Below, piece after piece: positions 2,574 through 30,084 of a stretch of 31,011 nt of DNA. A program made the position numbers and the translations under genes. The stretch is from positions 1 to 31,011 of the IMG/VR virus record IMGVR_UViG_3300022923_001986, one strand, 5' to 3'. Within the stretch, counting starts at the first letter, position 1, and each line of letters starts with the position of its first letter. Origin of the DNA: a virus. Lineage: Duplodnaviria; Caudoviricetes. The notes beneath the pieces were generated by a model. The model had not been told where the DNA came from and searched no databases. It saw only the letters and a list, made by a program, of their open reading frames with translations.

Positions 2574-5144
2574 ATGTTACAATTAAAACCATACAAGCAA
2601 CCTATGCCAGTTGGGGTAAGACTCCCCGAGATTGAAGTAGATGACAAGCACTATAAAGAGTTAGGCATCCCAAAAGGAACATCTAACTTTGACTTGTTGA
2701 GAAAGCTATGCTTGAAAGGCGTAAAAGATAGAGGTATTGACTTATTAGATAATAAGCAAAAATACTATGATCGAGTGAAAATGGAGCTTTCTGTTTTAGA
2801 GGAGCTTGGTTTTGTTGAATATATATTATTGAATTGGGACGTTCTCAATTATTGTCACGAAAATGGAATACCCACGGGTCCAGGACGAGGATCTGCCGCA
2901 GGATCTTTGGTATTATACTTGTTAAGAGTTACAAATGTTGACTCAATCAAATATGATCTTTTCTTTGAAAGATTTGTTTCGAAGAGCCGAGCCAAACAAA
3001 CAATTGTTGATGGTATTACCTATCTTGATGGTTCGCTCCTAGCTGATGTTGATAATGATATTTCTTATGATCGCCGCCAAGAAGTGATTAAATATATTGA
3101 AACAAAACACAAAGGAAGAACTTGTAAAATTTTAACACTAAATACTTTAAGTAGTAAGCTATGCGTTAAAGAGTGCGGTAAAATTGTTGGAGAATTATCT
3201 GAAGATGATGTAAATAGTGTTAGCTCTATTATACCTAAACAGTTTGGCAAGGTAGCTAAACTAGATGTAGCCTACGAAGAGAGTGAAAAGTTTAAAGAAT
3301 TTGCGGATAAAAACGCAAAAGTATACAGAATAGCTAAAAAATTAGAAGGTCTAAATAAAAATACAGGAGTCCACCCATCTGGCATTGCAATCAGCTTTTA
3401 TAATGTTGAAGAAATTATGCCTATGCAGAGAACTGGTGACGGCGATCTTATTTCAGCTTATGATATGAATGATGTTGCAGCTTTGATGGTTAAGTTCGAT
3501 ATTTTGGGCTTGCGCACTCTTTCTGTTGTGCATGAAACGTGCAAACAGCTTGGCATCAAAATGGAAGATATTGATGTAGAGCTTCCAGAGATTTATGAAA
3601 ACTTCAAGAATATTGAAGCCCCTAAAGGGTTATTCCAAATCGAAGCTAATACCAATTTCAAAGTCTGCAAGAAAGTTTCACCAAGAAATTTAGAAGAACT
3701 ATCTGCGGTTGTGGCTATTGCTCGTCCTGGTGCGCTTGATTATTTGGATGTATACAGCGAATACGTTAGCACAGGAGAGTTTCAATCAGTAAACGAATAC
3801 TTTGATGAGATTCTTTCCTATACTGGAGGTATTCCACTATACCAAGAGCAGCTAATGAAGATGGCTGTTAAGGTTGGCTTCACCTTAGATGAGTCTGAGC
3901 AGCTGAGACGAATAGTTGGTAAGAAGAAGGTGGAACAAATGTCTAAATGGAAAGATAAGATTGCGGCCAAGATTCAGGAAAACAATTTAGATGAACAGGT
4001 AGGCGAAGTCTTGTGGAAGGTTGCAGAAGACTCAGCTAATTACTCGTTCAATAAATCCCACTCAATTAGTTATGCTATTTTGGCGGCAATCACAACTCAC
4101 CTTAAATTCAAACACCCACAGGAGTTTTTCTTGAGTTTGTTAAGGATGACAAAACATGAACCAGATTCTCATGCTGAAATTTCATTAATTAATCAAGAGC
4201 TATGTCTTTTTAATATGAAACTCTTGCCACCTGATTTATCTAAATCCGACATCATGTTTGAGATCGAGGGTCGCGACATCAGGTTCGGTGTCAACAGCAT
4301 CAAGGGAGTTTCTGAAAAAACCCTAGAAAGCTTAGTCGAATTTCGTAAGTCTCAAGACACCAGTCAGAATAAGTACGACGTATTCCTCACAGCTAAGCAG
4401 TCTGGTTTAAATATTGGTGTGCTATCTGGATTAGTCCAAGGGGGAATGATGGATTCTTTTTGCGACTCAAAGGCGGCCATCCCAAACCGTTGTCGCTTAG
4501 TGCTAGAAGCTCAGGCGTTTAATATTCTTACGGATAGAGAAAAGCGTAATTTTGTAGAATTAGGAAAGAGGTTTGATTACGATGTATTGAAATCCATCCA
4601 TTCTGTCGTGAAAGACTCCCTAGTAGCCGACGATGGCAAACCGTTAATGAAAGATTCTAGATTTAACACATTTAAAAAGAAATACGACGGATACAAAAAG
4701 ATTTACGAAAAGAATAAAGATCACTTAAAGTTTGCGAATTGGTTTTTTGAACGTAAGTATCTTGGCTATAGCCATTCAACACAGATTAAAGATGTCTTTG
4801 AAAATTCTGGTGATCTATGTGATACTATTCAATTAAAGTCTATCAATAACAACGACAGGGTAAAACTGGTAGGGGTTGTAACCGACTGTATCTCCAGAAC
4901 AAGTGCGGCAGGAAATAAATATATGAGAGTAGAAATACAAGATGACTTTGGTACAATTGATTTTATGCTTATGAATAATAGACGCTCCGCCACGTTAGAT
5001 AATTATTTAAACAATGGAGGCAAAAAACCCAAAGAAGAACAAATTGTGTTTATTTATGGCAGCAAAGGGGAAGATATTATATTCGGTGATAGCATTACCA
5101 TTCTCGATGAAAAAATTTATACAAAACTATCTGAAATCAAATAA
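2574..5144 (+). CDS. dnaE: DNA polymerase III alpha subunit core (family C), lacking the PHP domain
   Basis: GPGRGSAAGSLV, LFFERF, catalytic ADVDND, HPSG, KFDILGL, YQEQLM, YSFNKSH and a C-terminal OB fold (VKLVGVV...GNKYMRVEIQDDFG). Confidence 0.95.
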   Translation: MLQLKPYKQPMPVGVRLPEIEVDDKHYKELGIPKGTSNFDLLRKLCLKGVKDRGIDLLDNKQKYYDRVKMELSVLEELGFVEYILLNWDVLNYCHENGIPTGPGRGSAAGSLVLYLLRVTNVDSIKYDLFFERFVSKSRAKQTIVDGITYLDGSLLADVDNDISYDRRQEVIKYIETKHKGRTCKILTLNTLSSKLCVKECGKIVGELSEDDVNSVSSIIPKQFGKVAKLDVAYEESEKFKEFADKNAKVYRIAKKLEGLNKNTGVHPSGIAISFYNVEEIMPMQRTGDGDLISAYDMNDVAALMVKFDILGLRTLSVVHETCKQLGIKMEDIDVELPEIYENFKNIEAPKGLFQIEANTNFKVCKKVSPRNLEELSAVVAIARPGALDYLDVYSEYVSTGEFQSVNEYFDEILSYTGGIPLYQEQLMKMAVKVGFTLDESEQLRRIVGKKKVEQMSKWKDKIAAKIQENNLDEQVGEVLWKVAEDSANYSFNKSHSISYAILAAITTHLKFKHPQEFFLSLLRMTKHEPDSHAEISLINQELCLFNMKLLPPDLSKSDIMFEIEGRDIRFGVNSIKGVSEKTLESLVEFRKSQDTSQNKYDVFLTAKQSGLNIGVLSGLVQGGMMDSFCDSKAAIPNRCRLVLEAQAFNILTDREKRNFVELGKRFDYDVLKSIHSVVKDSLVADDGKPLMKDSRFNTFKKKYDGYKKIYEKNKDHLKFANWFFERKYLGYSHSTQIKDVFENSGDLCDTIQLKSINNNDRVKLVGVVTDCISRTSAAGNKYMRVEIQDDFGTIDFMLMNNRRSATLDNYLNNGGKKPKEEQIVFIYGSKGEDIIFGDSITILDEKIYTKLSEIK

Positions 5145-6640
5145 TGGATCTATCTAACTTTAACTTCACACCTTCCGCTCAAAAAGCGATCAAAGACTCA
5201 ATATCTGTCGCTGAAGAATTTGGGCATCTAAAAGTTGTTGATTTGCATCTTATGCTATCTATACTTAGGTTAGATCATACCAGTATAGATTTTGCTATAG
5301 TTTCTAACGACCTGATTAAAGATGGTATTATTGAAGGTATAGAATATGCTATAATAAATTACAAAGAACCCAAAAGAAAGAAAAAAATATATGCACCAGA
5401 AATATACGAAATCTTACAAAACTCTAGTTTATTAGCATCTCGTTCTAAGGATGAATTTATTGGGATAGATCATATTTTAATTTCCATTCTCAGCACAAGA
5501 GAAGAAATCGCTGATTTTTTAATTCACTTAAACATAGATTTAACTAAATTAATTAATGACTTAAAAAAAATAATAAAAGATGGCATACCCAAAGAAAAAG
5601 TTCCATTAAGTATTGGTTCAAATGCAACTCAACAAGAAACTACTTCATCTGAAATGGATGGGTGGTGCGAAAATCTAAATGAAAAAATAGCACAAAAAGG
5701 AGAGTTTGAAATTTTTGGAAGAGATGCCGAGATTGAAAGAATTTTTGAAATATTATTACGTAAAAATAAAAGCAATGTTATATTAGTTGGAGAAGCTGGA
5801 GTTGGAAAAACTGCTATTGTCGAAGGCATGGCTGAAAAAATCCTAAAAAGAGAATGCCCAGATCTTTTGTTACATAAAAATATACTTTCGTTAGACTTAA
5901 CCTCTGTAATGTCTGGAACTATTTATAGGGGACAGATGGAAGAAAAACTTAAAAAAATATTAGAACATCTATCCGCAGAAGATCATTATATTTTGTTTAT
6001 CGACGAAATCCATACCATAGTTGGGGCTGGCAGTTCAGAAGGTAGTCTAGATTTTGCCAACATACTTAAACCAGCTTTATCAAGAGGGAATATATCATGT
6101 GTTGGCGCTACAACCAAAGATGAGTATGATCGTTTTTTTAAAAACGACTCTGCGTTGAATCGTAGGTTTGAATTAATCAATGTAAATGAACCCACCAAAG
6201 AAGAAACCTTTGAGCTTTTAAAGGTGGCTAAGAAATCTTATGAAAAATTTCACCAAGTAGAATATAGCGAAGAACTGTTAGCAAAAATTGTAGAGCTATG
6301 TGATATTTATTTAAGTAATAAAAAATTCCCAGATAAAGCTTTTGACATTATAGATGAATCAGGAGCTAAAACAAAAAAAGTAAACATGGTTCGCCCACAA
6401 AAAGCAAAAGACATGGAAGAACAACTCGTAGACTTAGATTTTCAAAAAAACACTGACTATGATAAATTCCACGGGAAGTATGTAAAAATCTTAGAAAAAT
6501 GGGGAGAAAGTTTGAAAAATAAAACTTTTAATGTTGACATGGATACAATATATGATATATTTGCTCATAAGTTAAATACTTCGAAGGAAAACATCAAAGA
6601 AAATAAAAATGTGCCATCTTCTGGCAGAATAGGATTTTAA
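5144..6640 (+). CDS. ClpA/ClpB/ClpC-family ATPase: Clp-N domain plus first AAA+ module only
   Basis: NFTPSAQKAI...HL.L repeats (Clp-N), GRDAEI, Walker A GEAGVGKT, Walker B ILFIDEIH, DSALNRRF, FPDKAFDIIDE. No second AAA+ module; ends in GRIGF. Confidence 0.9.
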   Translation: MDLSNFNFTPSAQKAIKDSISVAEEFGHLKVVDLHLMLSILRLDHTSIDFAIVSNDLIKDGIIEGIEYAIINYKEPKRKKKIYAPEIYEILQNSSLLASRSKDEFIGIDHILISILSTREEIADFLIHLNIDLTKLINDLKKIIKDGIPKEKVPLSIGSNATQQETTSSEMDGWCENLNEKIAQKGEFEIFGRDAEIERIFEILLRKNKSNVILVGEAGVGKTAIVEGMAEKILKRECPDLLLHKNILSLDLTSVMSGTIYRGQMEEKLKKILEHLSAEDHYILFIDEIHTIVGAGSSEGSLDFANILKPALSRGNISCVGATTKDEYDRFFKNDSALNRRFELINVNEPTKEETFELLKVAKKSYEKFHQVEYSEELLAKIVELCDIYLSNKKFPDKAFDIIDESGAKTKKVNMVRPQKAKDMEEQLVDLDFQKNTDYDKFHGKYVKILEKWGESLKNKTFNVDMDTIYDIFAHKLNTSKENIKENKNVPSSGRIGF

Positions 6641-6652
6641 CAAATAAATAAA

Positions 6653-6871
6653 ATGAACAAAATGAATAAGACAAACCGTATTGTAAAAGCAATTAGCGCT
6701 AGTGGTGGCCGTTTTTTCGGCCTCACTACTCAACAAGGCGAAACGCTCAACGCACAATTTGTGCGTGAGACCCCAAAATATGTGGTGGTTCGAGATCGAA
6801 ATGCTAAGGAGATTCGAAAGTTTGCCAAGACGAGCCTTAAAACGCTCTCAATGGGCAAGACTAAGATCTAA
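6653..6871 (+). CDS. Small basic hypothetical protein
   Basis: 72-aa ORF directly followed by a terminator. Confidence 0.7.
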   Translation: MNKMNKTNRIVKAISASGGRFFGLTTQQGETLNAQFVRETPKYVVVRDRNAKEIRKFAKTSLKTLSMGKTKI

Positions 6872-6877
6872 CATCTC

Positions 6878-6902
6878 AGGCGGTAGAAATACCGCCTTTT
6901 TT
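6878..6902 (+). terminator. Rho-independent terminator
   Basis: AGGCGGTA-GAAA-TACCGCCT 8-bp stem with GAAA tetraloop, followed by a T run. Confidence 0.9.
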
Positions 6903-6908
6903 GTGTAA
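6903..6908 (+). promoter_or_regulatory. GTGTAA motif 10 nt before ATG 6919
   Basis: Lies immediately after the terminator, where a new promoter is needed. Confidence 0.5.
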
Positions 6909-6918
6909 TATAATGTAT

Positions 6919-8085
6919 ATGGCACAGGAAAAAGAAATTCAGTTAAATAACTACATAATGGTTGATTCCAACCCAACTGGAAGAGATGAGGAAATTTCTG
7001 AATTTGAAAAAGATTTCATAATTAAATATCTCAAAGAGGTTTTCCCAGAGATATCTAAAGATGTAATTGATATTGAGTTAATCAATTCTACCTTTTTTTA
7101 CGAAAGCTATTCTTTTATTTTCGAAAAGAAAAAGTTTCTATTTAAGGTCAGTTTGGATGCCCTTAATAAAAAACTAGAAACAGAACACGAAGCATTAAAA
7201 AGCATTACTGATATGTTCGCTCCATCAATCGTGTTTTATAAAATAGATGAAGTTAATAACATAAATATGCTTTTGACAACATGGGAAAATGGCAACAGCT
7301 TTCTTGATTATGGGGTCGGTGATCTTGTATATAATATGGGGACATTTTCAGCAGTTCTAGACGCTGTTCATGAATCAAACAACACAAAGATGCAAAGTTT
7401 TAAAGATAGGTTTTCACAAAACGAATCCATATTATCAGCAATCCAAAATGAAGACCCCAAAGAATTAAAAATATTTGCGAAATTGATAGATTTAAATCTT
7501 TCAGGCATTTCTGATGTTTTTGCAAAGATCAAAGAAGAATTTTTAACTGAGTACGAAGAAGATGTATCTGTGTTGTGTCATTCTAATTTAAAAAAATCTA
7601 ATATTTTATACAAAAATGGTTTCATAAAATTCATTAATTTTGAAAACTCTCACACTTCTGATATTTATTATAGCCTTTTAAAAGTTGTAAATAATTTAGA
7701 ATTATACATGGACTCCAAAGACACGCTGCTATTTTTAACCAAATACCATGAGTTTTCTAGAATATTAGGGGATTTAACATTAGAAGATTTTATATCTAAG
7801 TACGAAGAAAAAAAAGAAACAAACCGAATGTTAATATTTCAAGACTTATTGCACAAAACAGTATTTCATTTTTTTACTTACGGTGCTTTTTATAGATGTG
7901 AAAATTTATGTCATTACATGGGTGTATATCTGAATATTAGACCCACGTTAGAAAAATTCTTGCCAGAGTATATAAAATCTTTTGATAAATTATTTTTCAC
8001 GCCAATGCCAACAGTTAAAACTTATGATGAGGAAGAGTTAAAAATTCTAGCATCAATGGCTGAAGAGATTGAAGAAGCAGAATAA
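6919..8085 (+). CDS. APH/choline-kinase-fold protein, probably a pseudokinase
   Basis: FLFKV...EHEALK and VLCHSNLKKSNIL...FINFENS align with Brenner HGDL..NI and IDFE motifs, but with D-to-N at both positions. Confidence 0.7.
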   Translation: MAQEKEIQLNNYIMVDSNPTGRDEEISEFEKDFIIKYLKEVFPEISKDVIDIELINSTFFYESYSFIFEKKKFLFKVSLDALNKKLETEHEALKSITDMFAPSIVFYKIDEVNNINMLLTTWENGNSFLDYGVGDLVYNMGTFSAVLDAVHESNNTKMQSFKDRFSQNESILSAIQNEDPKELKIFAKLIDLNLSGISDVFAKIKEEFLTEYEEDVSVLCHSNLKKSNILYKNGFIKFINFENSHTSDIYYSLLKVVNNLELYMDSKDTLLFLTKYHEFSRILGDLTLEDFISKYEEKKETNRMLIFQDLLHKTVFHFFTYGAFYRCENLCHYMGVYLNIRPTLEKFLPEYIKSFDKLFFTPMPTVKTYDEEELKILASMAEEIEEAE

Positions 8086-8098
8086 TTTAAAATTTATA

Positions 8099-8126
8099 TT
8101 GAATATAAAAGTTTTTCATTTAGAAT
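8099..8126 (+). promoter_or_regulatory. sigma70-type promoter, leaderless
   Basis: TTGAAT-16 nt-TAGAAT, 7 nt before ATG 8134. Confidence 0.5.
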
Positions 8127-8133
8127 CACCTAA

Positions 8134-8595
8134 ATGAAACAACACGATATTTACAAACCAAACTCCTTCAATACGGGGTGCGCTTTTTCCTTCAAAATTG
8201 TAGAGCAAGACAAAGAAGGTAATAAAACAAAACCTACCATACTTGTCCAATCAATCAAACAAGCTTCATGGAATGAAAAAACTAGGAATGGATCTTTTAG
8301 TGCCAATGCGAAAGACCCAGAAAAAAATATTTATTTTAAACTGAACGAAAATGAGGTAGGCGGAATGCTCCACGCCATCGAAAACTATACAGAGTTTTCT
8401 GCGTTTCACAGCTATAACGACGATAAAACAACAATTTCGTTCAAACCTTATGTTAAAAAGAATGGCCAAAAAGCTTTCTCTTTCAGTGTAGTTAAAAACT
8501 CCACAATGAAGTTCGGCATGGGTATAGAGCTTGGCGAAGCTAGAACCATTAAAGGTTTGTTTGATTTGTTTCTTTTTAAATTTTTCAATTATTAA
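8134..8595 (+). CDS. Putative Whirly/PC4-fold single-stranded nucleic acid binding protein
   Basis: Ordered motif similarity by eye to plant Whirly: DIYK, KLNENEVGGML, FSAFH, ISFKP, FSFSVV, IELGEARTIKGLF. Confidence 0.5.
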   Translation: MKQHDIYKPNSFNTGCAFSFKIVEQDKEGNKTKPTILVQSIKQASWNEKTRNGSFSANAKDPEKNIYFKLNENEVGGMLHAIENYTEFSAFHSYNDDKTTISFKPYVKKNGQKAFSFSVVKNSTMKFGMGIELGEARTIKGLFDLFLFKFFNY

Positions 8596-10286
8596 TGAAA
8601 AAGAAAATCTTATTTCATTCAAACTCTGCTAAAGCGTTTACTGGATTTGGTAAAAACGCAAAAAATATTCTTTTATACCTACAAAAAACAGGTAAATACG
8701 AAATCATTGAATTCGCAAACGGAATTCAGTGGGGAGACCCATCTTTAAAACTTAGACCTTGGAAAGCTCAAGGGTCTTTACCAAATAACCCAGAAATTTT
8801 AAGACGATTACAATCAGACCCACAAAAAGGGCGCGATGCTGGCTATGGTGGAGCAACGATAGACCAAGCTATTCAAGAATATAAACCAGATATTTATGTT
8901 GGAGTAGAGGATATTTGGGCATTTGAAGGTTATTGGAATAAACCTTGGTGGAATAAAATCAACCATATGATTTGGACCACATTAGATAGTCAGCCAATTT
9001 TACCACAAGCTGTCGAAGCTATAAAAAAAACAAAAAACTTCTATACTTGGGCTTCTTTTGCGGAGAGGGATCTCAAAAAGATGGGGCATGAAAACGCCGC
9101 TACGTTACACGGATCTGTTAGCACCGAAGATTTTTATCGTTTTAATAGAGTAGACAAAGAGCATTTAAGAAATAAATTTAATCTATCGGACAGTTTTGTT
9201 GTAGGATTCGTTTTTAGAAATCAATTACGAAAAAGTGTTCCAAATTTATTGGAGGGATTTAAAATATTCAAAAGAGATTGCCCCAAAGCGAAGTTGTTAC
9301 TCCATACTCATTGGTCGGAGGGTTGGGACATACCAAGATTGATAAAAGAAAAAGATATTGACCCAAAAGATATTCTAACAACCTATTTTTGCTCAGCTTG
9401 TGGGGAATATGAGGTCCGCCCCTTCACTGGGCAGGAACAAAAATGTAGATTTTGCGGTACAGAAAAATCATTAAACACCACAAATGTTAAAGCTGGTGTT
9501 AACGAAAAGCAACTTAATGAAATATATAACTTGATGGATGTTTATTGTCACCCATTTACAAGTGGTGGCATGGAAATACCTATTTTTGAAGCTAAGTTAA
9601 CAGAGCTGGTGACACTAGTAACAAACTATTCGTGTGGGGAGGATTCTTCTACTCTAGAGAGCGGTAGTTTGCCGCTTGATTGGTCCGAGTATAGAGAGCC
9701 AGGGACTCAGTTTATTAAAGCTTCCACTTACCCATCTAGCATAGCCAAACAATTAAAAAAGGTTTGGAAGATGGATGCTAATAAAATCTATCAAATTGGA
9801 GTGAAAGCGAGACAGTGGACTATTGACAATTATTCTATACCCGTAATTGGCAAAAAACTAGAAAAGATATTCGATTCTATGCCTTGTGCAAATTATGACT
9901 TTGATCTAGAGCAAAAAGATACAGAAAAAAATGATCTAATTAATTTTTTAGATGATGGAGATAGATTGGCTATAGTTATGCCTAGATCTGCTGGAGATGT
10001 ACTTTGGATTAATTCTTTAATAGATAATGTTAAAAGTTTGTATCCAACACATGATATTTATGTATTCTCGGAACCTCAATTTTTTGACTACATAGAAGAC
10101 CACCCAGACGTTCATAAAGTTCTTCAATATTGTCAGGAAATAGATGATTTGCATTTTCTAGAGGGTAGAGGTACTCATGCTGGTTTTTTCGACCTAGCCT
10201 TCTTACCTCATTGTGGCACACAAAAATTTCACAACTACCACCACAATGGCAAAGACAAAACACAATTAAAGTTATATGAAAATTAA
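8595..10286 (+). CDS. GT4-family glycosyltransferase with CxxC..CxxC insert and a C-terminal GT9 N-terminal-like domain
   Basis: TGFG near the N-terminus, FRNQLRKSVPNLLEGF, LNEIYNLMDVYCHPFTSGGMEIPIFEA (GT-B). C-terminal LAIVMPRSAGDVL...LYPTHDIYVF...HPDVHKV. Confidence 0.85.
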   Translation: MKKKILFHSNSAKAFTGFGKNAKNILLYLQKTGKYEIIEFANGIQWGDPSLKLRPWKAQGSLPNNPEILRRLQSDPQKGRDAGYGGATIDQAIQEYKPDIYVGVEDIWAFEGYWNKPWWNKINHMIWTTLDSQPILPQAVEAIKKTKNFYTWASFAERDLKKMGHENAATLHGSVSTEDFYRFNRVDKEHLRNKFNLSDSFVVGFVFRNQLRKSVPNLLEGFKIFKRDCPKAKLLLHTHWSEGWDIPRLIKEKDIDPKDILTTYFCSACGEYEVRPFTGQEQKCRFCGTEKSLNTTNVKAGVNEKQLNEIYNLMDVYCHPFTSGGMEIPIFEAKLTELVTLVTNYSCGEDSSTLESGSLPLDWSEYREPGTQFIKASTYPSSIAKQLKKVWKMDANKIYQIGVKARQWTIDNYSIPVIGKKLEKIFDSMPCANYDFDLEQKDTEKNDLINFLDDGDRLAIVMPRSAGDVLWINSLIDNVKSLYPTHDIYVFSEPQFFDYIEDHPDVHKVLQYCQEIDDLHFLEGRGTHAGFFDLAFLPHCGTQKFHNYHHNGKDKTQLKLYEN

Positions 10287-23028: not shown

Positions 23029-23721
23029 ATGGCGGACAAAAAAATATCAGAACTTACGGAACTAACTTCAGCTGACTCAGTAACTGACCTCTTACCTGTT
23101 GTAGATACCAGCGCAGATGAGACCAAAAAGATTAGATTTAGTAATTTGCCACTGAGTGATTCGGCTAAAAACTCTGTGTATACGTATACTACAGACTTTC
23201 ACGGTGCTGTGGAGCAAACACGGAATATTACTGCTCCGTTGATTTACAATCAGTATTACGGCGATGACACTACTTTAACTAGTATCTATATTGGGAGCAA
23301 TGTTCCCAGCATTGGCGTATCCGCATTCATTGGTTGCGATGCCCTGGCGGATGTAACCATCGCTAACGGTATCACAAGTATCGGTCAAAATGCATTTCGG
23401 CTCTGCTTTGCTATCCAAAGTATCAATATTCCAGACAGCGTTACCAGCATCGGGCTTAGCGCACTTCAAAACTGCAATGCCCTGAACAGCTTAACCATTC
23501 CCAGCAGTGTGACTAGTATTGGGGATAACGCTTTTCGTAGTTGCGTTAACTTAGCGACAATTAACTGCAATGTAGATTTTTCTATTATAAATGGCCTAGA
23601 TAATGTTTTCACTAACACACAGTCCCCTCTTACTATAAACGTACCAGCTGGACTGGGTTGGACAGCTGGATCTGGCCAAACAATTGGCGGAAACACAAAC
23701 GTAACCGTTAATATAATTTAA
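23029..23721 (+). CDS. BspA/LRR_5 leucine-rich repeat protein 1 (4 repeats)
   Basis: MADKKISELTELTSA N-terminal module followed by IPxSVTSIGxxAFxxCxxL repeats. Confidence 0.9.
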   Translation: MADKKISELTELTSADSVTDLLPVVDTSADETKKIRFSNLPLSDSAKNSVYTYTTDFHGAVEQTRNITAPLIYNQYYGDDTTLTSIYIGSNVPSIGVSAFIGCDALADVTIANGITSIGQNAFRLCFAIQSINIPDSVTSIGLSALQNCNALNSLTIPSSVTSIGDNAFRSCVNLATINCNVDFSIINGLDNVFTNTQSPLTINVPAGLGWTAGSGQTIGGNTNVTVNII

Positions 23722-23733
23722 TCTTCAAAAATC

Positions 23734-25404
23734 ATGGCAGACAAAAAGATATCAGAACTCACAGAACTAACTTCAGCAGACTCGGCAGTAGATTTTTTAC
23801 CAGTTGTAGACTCCAGCGAAAGTAAAACTAAAAAAATTAAATTAGCCAACTTTCCGCTTAGTGATGCCTCTAAAGATACCGCATACCCATACACGATAGA
23901 TATTCAGGCTGGCGTGGAGCAAACTCGGAATCTTGCAACTATTAGTAATTCAGATGGGTTCTACAATACAAATCAACCAGATAGTATTTATATTGGGACT
24001 AATGTAACCAGCATTGGGTCTGCCGCGTTTAGCAACAGCAATTTTGCAGGGGTTAATTTAGCAAATCAGAGCGTCACGATTCCCGACAGCGTCACCACCA
24101 TCGGGAGTTATGCATTCTATTACTCTGCGCTAACGAGTGTCAGGCTTCCAAATAATCCTGCGTTTACCTCGATTGAGCGAGATACATTCGGCGGTTGCGA
24201 ATCTCTTACAAGTGTCGTCATTCCCGATAGCGTCACCAGTATCGGGGATCAGGCATTCCGATACTGCATTAGCCTGACGAGCATCACCATTCCCGACAGC
24301 GTCAACAGCATCGGGAGTAGCGCATTCTATCAATGCTCTGATCTCGCGAGTGCTACCCTCCCAAATAATGTTGGCTTCACCAGAGTCGAAAATTTCTTAT
24401 TCCAGAACTGCACTAGCCTGGCGAGCATCACCATTCCCGACAGCGTCACCAGCATCGGGGATAGCGTATTCCAAGGCTGCAGCAGCCTGATAAGCATCTC
24501 CATTCCCGACAGCGTCACCAGCATGGGGTATTATTTGTTTAATAGCTGTGCTGTAACGAGCATTACCATCCCCTACGGACTCACCAGTATCCAGTTTGCT
24601 GTATTCGCTTACGCAGCAGCCCTAGAAAACGTAACTTTCTCAAATAACCCTAATTTCATCGGAATTGGACAAGAGGCATTCGTTGGTTGCACCAGCCTGA
24701 GGAGCATCACTATCCCCAACAGCGTCACCAGCATCGGGAATGAATCATTCGCTTACTCTGGCCTGACGAGCGTCACCATCCCCAACAGTGTTTCCACTGT
24801 CGGGATTGGTGTATTCTCACAATGTGCTGATCTCGCGAGTGCTACCCTCCCAAATAATGTTGGCTTCACCAGAGTCGAAAATTACTTATTCTATAACTGC
24901 ACTAACCTGGAGAGCGTCAACATTCCCGACAGCGTCACCTACATCGGGATTAGCGCATTCCAAGACTGCGACTTGACGAGCATCACCATCCCAGACAGCG
25001 TTTCCACCATCAAACAAAGAGCATTCCAAGGCTGTGACGGGGTAGAAAGTCTCACCCTCCCAACCAATGCTGGCTTTACTACCATTGAGCAATTCACATT
25101 CGCTGAACTTAGGGCTTTACTGAGTTTAACCATACCCAATACCGTAACGACTATAGGTCTTAAAGCATTCCGCAACCTCAATGTTTTGACAACTGTTGAA
25201 ATTCCCAGCAGTGTCTCCAGCATAGGACAGGAAGCCTTTCAGGCTTGTACACTACTAGGGACAATCAACTGCCTAGCTACAACTGCTCCTGCCTTGGGTT
25301 CTAATCCGTTTTCTGGTGTAGCGGCTACAGAGATTCACGTTCCAGCAGGAGCAATAGGATACGGAACTACATATGGAGGTTTGACGGTCGTCTCCGATTT
25401 ATAG
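23734..25404 (+). CDS. BspA/LRR_5 leucine-rich repeat protein 2 (about 18 repeats)
   Basis: Same N-terminal module; 22-25-aa repeats; C-cap TINCLATTAPALG...IHVP.GA...TYGGLTV. Confidence 0.92.
   Translation: MADKKISELTELTSADSAVDFLPVVDSSESKTKKIKLANFPLSDASKDTAYPYTIDIQAGVEQTRNLATISNSDGFYNTNQPDSIYIGTNVTSIGSAAFSNSNFAGVNLANQSVTIPDSVTTIGSYAFYYSALTSVRLPNNPAFTSIERDTFGGCESLTSVVIPDSVTSIGDQAFRYCISLTSITIPDSVNSIGSSAFYQCSDLASATLPNNVGFTRVENFLFQNCTSLASITIPDSVTSIGDSVFQGCSSLISISIPDSVTSMGYYLFNSCAVTSITIPYGLTSIQFAVFAYAAALENVTFSNNPNFIGIGQEAFVGCTSLRSITIPNSVTSIGNESFAYSGLTSVTIPNSVSTVGIGVFSQCADLASATLPNNVGFTRVENYLFYNCTNLESVNIPDSVTYIGISAFQDCDLTSITIPDSVSTIKQRAFQGCDGVESLTLPTNAGFTTIEQFTFAELRALLSLTIPNTVTTIGLKAFRNLNVLTTVEIPSSVSSIGQEAFQACTLLGTINCLATTAPALGSNPFSGVAATEIHVPAGAIGYGTTYGGLTVVSDL
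24338..24883 (+). repeat. Exact 57-bp direct repeat (24338-24394 and 24827-24883)
   Basis: ctgatctcgcgagtgctaccctcccaaataatgttggcttcaccagagtcgaaaatt occurs twice, 489 bp apart. Confidence 0.95.
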
Positions 25405-25437
25405 TTGACTGTTAATATAATTTAATCTTTAAAAATC

Positions 25438-26034
25438 ATGGCAGACAAAAAAATATCACAACTAACAGAATTAACTTCAGCTGATCCAGCAATCGATGTG
25501 CTACCAATAGTAGACAGCGATTTAAATCAGACCAAAAAGATTAAGTTGGCAGATCTTCCTCTGAGTGATGCGGAAAAGGGATCTCTTGTGCCATTCACTA
25601 CGGATATTCAGGCTGGCGTGGATCAAACTAGAAATCTTACAACTATTACTAATTTAGATGGTTATGATGGTAACACGACATTAAATAGCGTCTACATTGG
25701 AAGTAATGTCACCAGTATCGGGTCTTATGCATTTCAAAGCTGCAGCAGCCTGACGAGCATCACCATCGGCAACAGCGTCACCAGCATCGGGTCTGGCGCA
25801 TTCTATCAATGCACTAGCCTGACGAGCGTCACCATTCCCAACAGTGTCACCAGCATCGGGAATTACGCATTCGAGGGCTGCACCAGCCTGGCTACAATCA
25901 ACTGCCTAGCTACAACCGCTCCTGCCTTGGGTTCTAATGCGTTTTCTGGTGTAGCGGCTTCAACAATTCACGTTCCAGTAGGAGCAACTTACCCAGCTAC
26001 ATATGGAGGTTTGACAGTTTTCTTCGATTTATAG
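25438..26034 (+). CDS. BspA/LRR_5 leucine-rich repeat protein 3 (3 repeats)
   Basis: Same N-terminal module and nearly the same C-cap as protein 2. Confidence 0.92.
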   Translation: MADKKISQLTELTSADPAIDVLPIVDSDLNQTKKIKLADLPLSDAEKGSLVPFTTDIQAGVDQTRNLTTITNLDGYDGNTTLNSVYIGSNVTSIGSYAFQSCSSLTSITIGNSVTSIGSGAFYQCTSLTSVTIPNSVTSIGNYAFEGCTSLATINCLATTAPALGSNAFSGVAASTIHVPVGATYPATYGGLTVFFDL

Positions 26035-27444: not shown

Positions 27445-27689
27445 TGAGAATAACTATAAAAGCTGACCCCTCAAAATCGAGAGGTAAGTCTTACTATTGG
27501 AATTTAGCCGAGGCTGTGTCGCAAGGACTAGCCTCGGTTTTTGGCTTAAATGCTAATCTAACTTTTTCTGCCTACTGTGGCTACTGGCAACAATTAAATT
27601 TACCAGTAAGAGGAAAATTTTATAAATTTATTAATTTTTTATTTAGAGATAAAAAGCATTGTGAAAATGCTTGGAAGAATTTAACTTGA
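27444..27689 (+). CDS. Small conserved phage protein of the type found after tail-fibre genes
   Basis: TFSAYCG...FINFLF.DKKHC.NAW pattern; ATG overlaps the upstream stop. Confidence 0.65.
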   Translation: MRITIKADPSKSRGKSYYWNLAEAVSQGLASVFGLNANLTFSAYCGYWQQLNLPVRGKFYKFINFLFRDKKHCENAWKNLT

Positions 27690-27713
27690 CAACGTTGTTT
27701 TGTGTGCTATAAT
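27686..27713 (+). promoter_or_regulatory. Strong sigma70-type promoter, leaderless
   Basis: TTGACA-16 nt-TATAAT with extended TGn, 7 nt before ATG 27721. Confidence 0.75.
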
Positions 27714-27720
27714 TAAGCAT

Positions 27721-27912
27721 ATGAATACTACATGGACTGACCAACAACGCGGCGCTTTCTGGAAGAAAGACGGAAAAAATGGCAAGTATCTCGCGGGATA
27801 CGTTGTTATTGATGGCAAGAAGATGCCAGTAACCGTCTTCCCGAATAAGTACAAATCCAAAGATAACCAACCAGAGTTTATCATCTACGAGACTTTTGGA
27901 CAAAATGGATAA
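27721..27912 (+). CDS. DUF736-like small beta protein (possible ssDNA binder)
   Basis: GAFWKK.GK.GKYLAG.V......VFPN..K...QPEFII pattern. Confidence 0.6.
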   Translation: MNTTWTDQQRGAFWKKDGKNGKYLAGYVVIDGKKMPVTVFPNKYKSKDNQPEFIIYETFGQNG

Positions 27913-28132
27913 AAATCTTCAATCAACCTACTGCATGCTTGATTCGTTCGTGCAATCTGGCGAAATAACAGATTTGCGCAAAACTTATTTTGAGAAGATA
28001 GCTCTTCCAGCAATGCGGGAAGTTAATCCAGAGTGGAAGCCCAAAACAATACAAGAGGCTTATTTAATTTTAAAAAATTATCTTAATAAAGAAAAAAGCA
28101 CCAAACCAAACTTTTTTGTTGACATTGATTAA
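27905..28132 (+). CDS. Hypothetical protein
   Basis: 75-aa ORF overlapping the previous stop region. Confidence 0.65.
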   Translation: MDKNLQSTYCMLDSFVQSGEITDLRKTYFEKIALPAMREVNPEWKPKTIQEAYLILKNYLNKEKSTKPNFFVDID

Positions 28133-28146
28133 ATTTTAGGCATTAT
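28119..28146 (+). promoter_or_regulatory. sigma70-type promoter, leaderless
   Basis: TTGACA-16 nt-CATTAT, 7 nt before ATG 28154. Confidence 0.55.
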
Positions 28147-28153
28147 ATGTTGT

Positions 28154-28318
28154 ATGTCTAAAAAAATAAAACCAGGTGCTGATTTAAGAGCGCCGAATGC
28201 AACAAAGAGAAAACTCATGGGACGCTCAAGCGGCGCACTTGTCCACAACGATCATGTCGGTCATTTGGTAACTCCAAAGATTGACAAGGCTATCAAAAAA
28301 AATCTGGATAAGAAATGA
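28154..28318 (+). CDS. Small basic protein, 54 aa (not in the ORF track)
   Basis: MSKKIKPGADLRAPNATKRKLMGRSSG...LDKK*, at the same promoter spacing as other genes. Confidence 0.65.
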   Translation: MSKKIKPGADLRAPNATKRKLMGRSSGALVHNDHVGHLVTPKIDKAIKKNLDKK

Positions 28319-28337
28319 CTGTAAATATAAAACAATT

Positions 28338-28598
28338 ATGATGAGATATAACGAGGTAGAATTTAGACCAGCAACCGTGGACAGGGAAGCCGAGATTGTT
28401 GCTTGGATTTACAATAAAGAATTAGATAAGGAAGCTTGTATCACTCTCTGTTGGATCAAGGAAGATCACGAAGGTTACTATATGAAAACTGTCGGGAATC
28501 GATATGTTGAGTATGACGATATGGAAGCATTGAATCACGTTGCTAAGTATGCAATGAGGTCTTTGAATGTACAATTTGAATTTAAGGAAAGATTATGA
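28338..28598 (+). CDS. Hypothetical protein
   Basis: aattATG start; tiles with its neighbours. Confidence 0.7.
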   Translation: MMRYNEVEFRPATVDREAEIVAWIYNKELDKEACITLCWIKEDHEGYYMKTVGNRYVEYDDMEALNHVAKYAMRSLNVQFEFKERL

Positions 28599-29528: not shown

Positions 29529-29720
29529 TTCTAAATCTAGCCTTCCAGATGGATAAAAACAATAAGGATTGGGAGAACTCGGTCGAGGCACGCCAACAGA
29601 GCGCGGGAGGGATGCAGGCTACAACGTCCACTTACTCTGAGCAAAAAACCCGCACAATTTTAACTAACGGAAAAGCTATATTATGAACGAATACAAAGAA
29701 AAAATTATGAAATATATATC

Positions 29721-29807
29721 AGAGAACGTGGAGGATAGCCATGCGAAATAAAGACTCAAGCTCAACGCCAGCGCGTAACTCGCATTGGCTAGTCCGTCTG
29801 GTTATCT
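29721..29807 (-). other. attC-like integron recombination site (87 bp)
   Basis: Minus strand: R'' AGATAAC, 5-nt spacer, GGA[C]TAGCCA[A]TGCGA, 33-nt loop, TCGCATGGCTATCC, 5-nt spacer, R' GTTCTCT. 14-bp stem with two extrahelical bases. Confidence 0.8.
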
Positions 29808-29962
29808 ATCTTCTTCCCAAATGGGAGATACGCGAAGAGATGATGTGCGATCAGAAATACTGGATGATTTACCGAGTTTCTTTTCTTGGGTCGTATTTCT
29901 TTGAAAGGTGGAATACCTCCGAAACCGCAGAGATACGAATGCGCGAACTTCAATCAAGATAA
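29727..29962 (-). mobile_element. Integron-type gene cassette, 236 bp
   Basis: The far end (minus strand GTTATCT, 29957-29963) is the exact complement of the cassette's own R'' AGATAAC, and removal restores a reading frame. Confidence 0.75.
29741..29962 (+). CDS. Cassette-borne hypothetical protein, 73 aa
   Basis: ATG lies inside the attC stem and is preceded by GGAGG (29730-29734); the stop TAA lies within the boundary AGATAAC. Confidence 0.65.
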   Translation: MRNKDSSSTPARNSHWLVRLVIYLLPKWEIREEMMCDQKYWMIYRVSFLGSYFFERWNTSETAEIRMRELQSR

Positions 29963-30084
29963 CATTAAACCCTTAGCACTTATCGCGATATGCGGTTGCG
30001 TTGGATACTTTTTAGGTAGTCCCATGACTGGAATGGTAGTTGGAATTACTATCGTAGCAGCTGCTACACTATTACTATAAAATT

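Follow-up and report, generated by a model that had tools for sequence, protein, structure and literature searches.

The question raised by this locus is how a 236-bp unit with the appearance of an integron gene cassette came to lie inside a gene of a coastal phage. The window, i.e. the whole stretch of 31,011 nucleotides analysed here, is a fragment of an uncultured coastal phage (36% GC) that encodes a DNA polymerase III alpha subunit, a Clp-type ATPase, lambda-type tail genes, sulfotransferases and BspA repeats. The cassette sits among a run of small genes on the + strand, which is headed by a putative sigma-70 promoter with TG (27686-27713, +) matching the consensus at 12/12 positions, a consensus match only, with promoter-like matches in the window as a whole at chance level (11 vs 10.6). 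The closest cultured relative of the polymerase is distant, at about 32% identity; comparison of the locus by blastn with phages in GenBank and plasmids in PLSDB delivered short chance matches only, and neither a tRNA nor an Rfam family was found in the window, including no Rfam match for the attC site. The locus is best represented in salt-marsh metagenome runs, the top run possibly being the window's own source; the nearest record (G001, 14 kb) does not span the cassette. With good confidence the unit is read here as an attC cassette of reversed polarity, which likely arrived as a circle from the array of another phage and was likely inserted by an integron integrase (IntI) acting in trans at an attG-type GTT.

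The attC site (29721-29807, 87 bp; + strand = bottom, recombinogenic strand) is recognized from its sequence, its fold, its scanner score and a family of related sites in 14 contexts. It consists of R' (AGAGAAC, 29721-29727), an L' box from 29733, an L'' box up to 29795 and R'' (GTTATCT, 29801-29807), all on the + strand. The initial annotation described an 87-bp palindrome with AAC/GTT ends, 5-nt unpaired spacers and a 14-bp stem; all of these coordinates are correct, the stem being composed of 3+6+5 pairs. Counted from the R'' end, the extrahelical bases of the + strand, G 29792 and T 29785, had likewise been placed correctly at positions 16 and 23, although the T may be either 29785 or 29786. 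Position 23 as the site of the second bulge is presumably the one known from attC aadA7. The label 'canonical' holds for the AAC/GTT triplets and the bulges but not for the boxes, which depart from RYYYAAC/GTTRRRY. L boxes and an unpaired spacer are present, and the bottom strand has an extrahelical G16 in its R''-L'' arm. In folding calculations the + strand pairs its R boxes, keeps the spacers open and carries two bulges on the 3' arm; on the - strand the R boxes are unpaired. Our own structural scorer, used as attC scanner, gives the site a score of 17, while the best of 19 matches in the background of 15 simulated 31-kb windows (both strands) reached 14.5. The fold energy by itself does not reach significance (z -1.5; matched by 16 of 200 shuffles), which counts against the attC reading. 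According to the accessible text of Bouvier et al. (2009, PMC2727003), the bottom strand carries its extrahelical G16 in the arm formed by R'' and L'', and crossover takes place between C and A of R'; by these rules the + strand is the bottom strand and the crossover is predicted at 29726|29727.

The inserted cassette (29727-29962, +) has a GC content of 45%, vs 35-37% in the neighboring flanks, is missing from related phages and is covered by contigs over both junctions. It interrupts codon 7 of a conserved 45-aa phage gene, an interruption absent from the initial annotation. The 5' piece of the split gene (29708-29751, +) comprises six codons and a hybrid Asn codon; its frame runs into the attC and ends at the TAA at 29749-29751, just past the cargo ATG. 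The 3' piece (29963-30080, +) has lost its start and is recognized by its identity to intact relatives (95-97% in loci L108, L109, L110 and L112; 85% in L113). The left end of the insert coincides with the predicted A|C crossover of the R' box, which supports the cassette reading. At the right end, the distal boundary AGATAAC (29957-29963, +) is made up of the cassette-derived AGATAA, containing the cargo stop, and one C that should be target-derived; as initially noted, it complements R'' at 7/7 positions and the adjacent AGAGAAC at only 6/7. Both ends thus lie exactly at the AAC boundaries of the cassette with no donor flank taken along, and the insert is a discrete, crossover-bounded unit of the kind that defines a gene cassette, with R'' complementary to the distal boundary.

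Empty-site relatives, sought as a check on the initial annotation, do exist. The survey covered 33 viral loci with the neighboring 181-aa gene. In L108, L109, L110 and L112 both flanks align and the insert is missing (L109 and L110 look alike), while L113 carries the 45-aa gene at another location. All five encode an intact 45-aa hydrophobic protein starting MKYI.ENIK; in the remaining loci the gene is missing or the contig stops short. Homologue clusters of the 45-aa gene are intact in 11/11 cases, one of them (P0009) with the window's own C-terminal allele. Contigs over the empty junction were also obtained from three of the four metagenome runs examined (X11, X12 and X19); X17 is without coverage there, and partial contigs of X6 and X17 over the site were not used. 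An assembly chimera or a chance palindrome might be suspected from a fold energy within the shuffled range and from the window being an assembled contig. This is very unlikely, to a degree that makes it negligible: an 804-nt contig of run X1 crosses the insert with zero differences, a contig of run X14 (2014, another study) crosses it with four differences and next to another upstream gene, a distinct strain (L157, 99.1% identical over 7,044 bp) carries the insert, and the site recurs in 14 contexts. L152, identical to the window, was left out of the counts. As the contigs of separate runs span both junctions and L157 has the insert, it is no assembly artefact; it is a real, well-bounded natural insertion.

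The letters at the target bear on the way of entry. On insertion by an integrase one C is contributed by the cassette and another by the target, and the recipient is therefore expected to read AAC. The five viral empty alleles all read AAT and give no GTT, which counts against the integrase reading; in the contigs of X11, X12 and X19 over the empty junction, with at most 24 aligned bases on the left, no letter other than AAT was seen, and an exact search of viral contigs for the predicted AAC junction gave 0 matches. Since every empty allele found reads AAT, a synonymous AAC recipient must be assumed, the simplest reading being a synonymous Asn variant that creates TGTT on the top strand. The filled junction reads TGTT on the top strand, which fits the GWT/TGWT consensus in the accessible text of Loot et al. 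(bioRxiv 10.1101/2022.09.11.507474), and the empty alleles read TATT there.

In the main rival the unit is a true attC cassette, but no integrase took part in its entry: it would have come from the array of a donor phage or from a cassette circle and recombined through short homology or illegitimately. This rival arises from the 5/6 bases that target and cassette ends have in common before the crossover, which leave room for such recombination; in addition, the region shuffles genes at short AATTATG-type joins, a GTT-bearing empty allele was not found, and the records of this lineage hold no integrase. Yet the ends lie exactly at the AAC boundaries of the cassette without donor flank, the crossover point is that of integrases as given in the accessible text of PMC2727003, and circle formation itself requires an integrase, so that entry of this kind is considered improbable. 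The back-joint of the circle was not present among the contigs of four runs, contigs being prone to drop rare forms. A contig of run X11 matching window positions 29732-29803 joins a window-type attC to a cargo of the type found in L141; the empty target allele is found in X11 as well, so that the cassette pool occurs together with the target phage.

The cargo gene (29741-29962, +) encodes 73 aa, of which about 21 N-terminal residues are attC-encoded and are followed by a small-protein domain of about 50 aa. The initial annotation was right that this reading frame runs opposite to normal cassette polarity, begins in the attC with GGAGG supplied by the site and stops (TAA) in the boundary. The Shine-Dalgarno-like GGAGGA (29730-29735, +) overlaps the L' box and lies 5 nt before the ATG, a position from which it may serve as the ribosome-binding site of the cargo; AGGA is invariant in 14/14 aligned attC sites, GGA itself being part of the search pattern. 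The HWLxRLV-type N-terminus, for which a search of phage proteins had been proposed, recurs. The unique part of the cargo belongs to an unnamed family with 66 cluster representatives at E<=0.001, and many homologues are free-standing proteins of 47-60 aa without the attC-encoded leader. No match to the cargo was found in Pfam, PHROG or NCBIfam, Pfam searches with 18 of 64 further homologues gave nothing over the cut-off, and the ESM Atlas provided leads under 0.9 only, to unnamed viral clusters; no other occurrence of the cargo was detected among viral contigs. It is likely one of many small early accessory proteins.

As the cargo is a real small-protein family encoded on the bottom strand, the polarity of the cassette is reversed, and the classical arrangement of a top-strand frame ending at the attC does not apply. 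An ordinary chromosomal cassette of the host with canonical polarity would instead use a 51-aa frame on the - strand (29802-29957), whose TTG start just inside the distal boundary and stop in R'' resemble those of canonical genes. This frame has no homologue, while the + strand frame has 66 clusters; the site family was not recovered by two exact patterns in 185,579 species genomes (0 and 12 matches, none passing the attC scanner), scans that do not prove the absence of the family; and the + strand frame is open in 14/14 family contexts. A canonical host cassette is therefore largely refuted and retains a slight probability.

Hairpins similar to the one in the window were found on other genes, with 11 distinct cargos in 14 phage-like contexts. 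A two-arm pattern recovered 18 metagenome loci and 2 viral loci, which correspond to the 14 contexts once each locus is counted a single time and with the window included. The sites are 81-100% identical to that of the window; the attC of L147 is 100% identical over 80 nt, yet it carries another cargo. In 13 sites the frame behind the ATG stays open for 62-102 aa, and in L146 the contig ends within it, the search pattern containing the ATG yet not the open frame after it. Three cargos each occur after differing upstream genes (L145/L151, L142/L149 and L144/L148). In the 13 complete sites, which are only partly independent because of shared cargos, the four variable R-box bases of R'' match the distal boundary at 42/52 positions vs 23/52 for the adjacent one (permutation expectation 23.5, p=2e-5); L144 and L153, two of the 13, do not fit this rule and count against it. 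The upstream frame stops inside the attC in 11 of the 14 contexts, two others end with the contig and L155 reads through. The contexts tested are phage-like, with terminase and portal genes, replication and Erf genes, rIIA and DNA methyltransferases. A 14-mer search gave 106 viral matches, two of them true family members. Because this hairpin heads various genes in phages that are not related to one another, an exchange of small genes among phages via a shared pool of mirror-image cassettes is likely. In L141, L145 and L155 cassette arrays lie just upstream of the head-tail and portal genes in phages resembling Verrucomicrobia phage P8625, a recurrent spot; the array of L141 is located between terminase and portal. 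An AT-rich, rIIA-bearing phage (L158, 5806-6197) carries two reversed cassettes, of which the first has a truncated attC; it is a second case of a large phage that took up cassettes yet shows no array.

Reversed polarity, as initially noted for this one cassette, is general in these phage arrays. A lenient scan of 14 loci detected 38 attC-like sites, all on the strand of the family and none on the opposite one, although the two sites in L150 are probably false. In a stricter scan 19 of 25 phage sites were reversed, one was canonical and five were unclear. The corresponding figures for 13 bacterial integron sites are 10 canonical, one reversed and two unclear (Fisher p 3e-6 by site and 5e-5 by locus). 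Calls in both sets follow a longest-ORF rule that is crude in GC-rich DNA, and the bacterial control comprises sites from 7 of 20 regions beside integrases in one phylum, sampled around a Planctomycetaceae genome and differing from the presumed host phylum.

As to the source of the integrase, none was found in the window, in agreement with the initial annotation, in a scan of 38 ORFs. The window, which ends 1 kb downstream, contains one convincing attC, fewer than the at least two clustered sites of a CALIN, and a single attC with no integrase nearby is a feature of SALINs and attG insertions. A complete integron with intI and attI beside the cassette is not seen, the window and its relatives G002-G005 being partial genomes. 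These relatives (20-64% complete; G002-G004 49-64%) yielded no tyrosine recombinase over the cut-off, which counts against the integrase reading, and G002-G004 contained no convincing attC. The attC family was not found beside any bacterial or viral integrase, which likewise counts against it.

For the portal protein of L141 the sole match is that of Verrucomicrobia phage P8625 (48.5%), and P8625 itself (L176) has two scanner-positive sites on the coding strand, one with an ATG in the loop. This suggests verrucomicrobial hosts for the attC family, a statement that applies to the family rather than to the window phage itself. The reversed attC-type sites of this cultured phage are located at 27760-28341, and the in-loop ATG at 28006 suggests that its gp44 starts 72 nt upstream of the annotated start. 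Integron integrases are common in viral contigs, with 560 of 601 scanned stretches confirmed, and 80 integrase-bearing viral loci were kept. Scanner sites occur in 34 of these 80, with 20 canonical, 14 reversed and 29 unclear calls; the excess of canonical over reversed sites beside viral integrases counts against the preferred reading, and six loci leaned reversed. In one locus (L292) an integrase with 353 bits on TIGR02249 (cut-off 265) lies beside a reversed array. Read base by base, each cassette gene of this array begins within an attC and stops within the following one, and all of these genes are encoded by the bottom strand. Reversed cassette runs are located at 345-991 and 4800-8933 of this locus, on both strands, and one run abuts the integrase, which reads in the same direction as the cassette genes. 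As the sites of L292 fall outside the sequence family of the window, this locus demonstrates that a phage-borne source exists and not that it was the donor. We infer a source that is at least as plausibly phage-borne as host-encoded.

Under the preferred reading of integrase-mediated entry, an IntI-type recombinase in a donor array would have joined two AAC boundaries into a circle, with R' and R'' pairing at 7/7 positions. In a recipient cell that was co-infected or lysogenic, probably a verrucomicrobium, the folded bottom strand would have been cleaved at the A|C point and linked to a TGTT site of the phage. With its gene on the bottom strand behind its attC, the cargo reads along the phage's small-gene operon, from which it would be expressed. 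The attC would provide both ribosome-binding site and start codon, and ribosomes that translate the broken gene may terminate at the stop codon within it (29749-29751), which would unfold the RNA hairpin and couple translation. The 45-aa target gene was probably inactivated, and the landing frame could be chance, at one in three.

The proposal that phages exchange accessory genes as attC cassettes has gained support from the empty alleles, the shared hairpin family and the reversed arrays. Its extension, to which a little better than an even chance is given, is that phages run a mirror-image integron economy of their own: the attC would act as translation leader and upstream stop, and phage-borne integrases would carry cassettes in trans from one phage to another, unrelated one within a host group, large phages without array or integrase among them, at nearly any in-frame Asn codon with GTT, the window recording one such event with empty alleles.

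Phage attC sites and off-site (attG) insertion are already published. Loot et al. defined SALINs and attG sites, with the insertion consensus GWT, or TGWT for IntI2, in the accessible text. The present case shares with theirs a lone attC cassette, no integrase or attI nearby, a presumed GWT/TGWT target and a dispensable coding sequence; it differs in that their work, as far as its accessible text extends, concerns bacterial chromosomes and laboratory selection, whereas here a wild phage gene received a reversed cassette and empty alleles are known. Clusters of phage attC sites, lacking an integrase as the window does, were described by Qi et al. (2023, PMC9892861), with recombination by IntI1 at 5 of 6 tested sites, but at least two sites were required and the accessible text gives no empty alleles, unlike here. 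On polarity, the same text offers 'divergent directions' in P12002L and no further account of reversed sites. When these phages were rescanned, the sites of TJE1 were canonical and ctTUS972 had no clear sites, while attC1 of P12002L (L162, about 29990-30040) is of the reversed type, as it lies 5' of the methyltransferase gene gp35 on the same strand. This site, the one in the set of Qi et al. that was found to be reversed, is, according to the accessible text, also the one that IntI1 failed to recombine, which counts against the reading. With the classical attC, as presented in the accessible text of Bouvier et al. (PMC2727003), the site shares R and L boxes, spacer, G16, bottom-strand fold and the C/A crossover in R'. 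The classical cassette gene of that text is, however, on the top strand before the attC and read from Pc, whereas here it follows the attC on the bottom strand and has its ribosome-binding site, start and N-terminus encoded by that site. The bottom-strand selectivity of recombination orients cassettes for Pc, according to the accessible text of a review (PMC8946536). A literature search, with limited coverage of subscription journals, found no paper on reversed phage cassettes.

The case bears on how phages acquire many small accessory genes at clean boundaries: it supplies exact crossover points, empty alleles and an attC family common to unrelated phages, and points to site-specific cassette traffic between phages. 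The cassette design is opposite to that of the textbook, where strand selectivity places genes under Pc. Odd N- and C-terminal peptides common to unrelated phage proteins are explained as attC-encoded. The reading can be tested, since a standard assay exists for attC x attI recombination and reversed sites also occur in a cultured phage, P8625.

Two further features of the window were noted. The stretch at 29530-29690, with a GC content above that of its flanks and a 45-aa ORF, is also missing from L108, L109, L112 and L113; it has no attC, tRNA or significant fold (z -0.05), matches only window-like loci, and is followed by the seven initial codons of a gene that relatives carry complete. At 23029-26034 three tandem BspA leucine-rich-repeat genes share a 208-nt 5' repeat and similar 3' ends at 45-50% GC. 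They adjoin two sulfotransferases and the tail genes, and are possibly a variable receptor-binding or decoration module.
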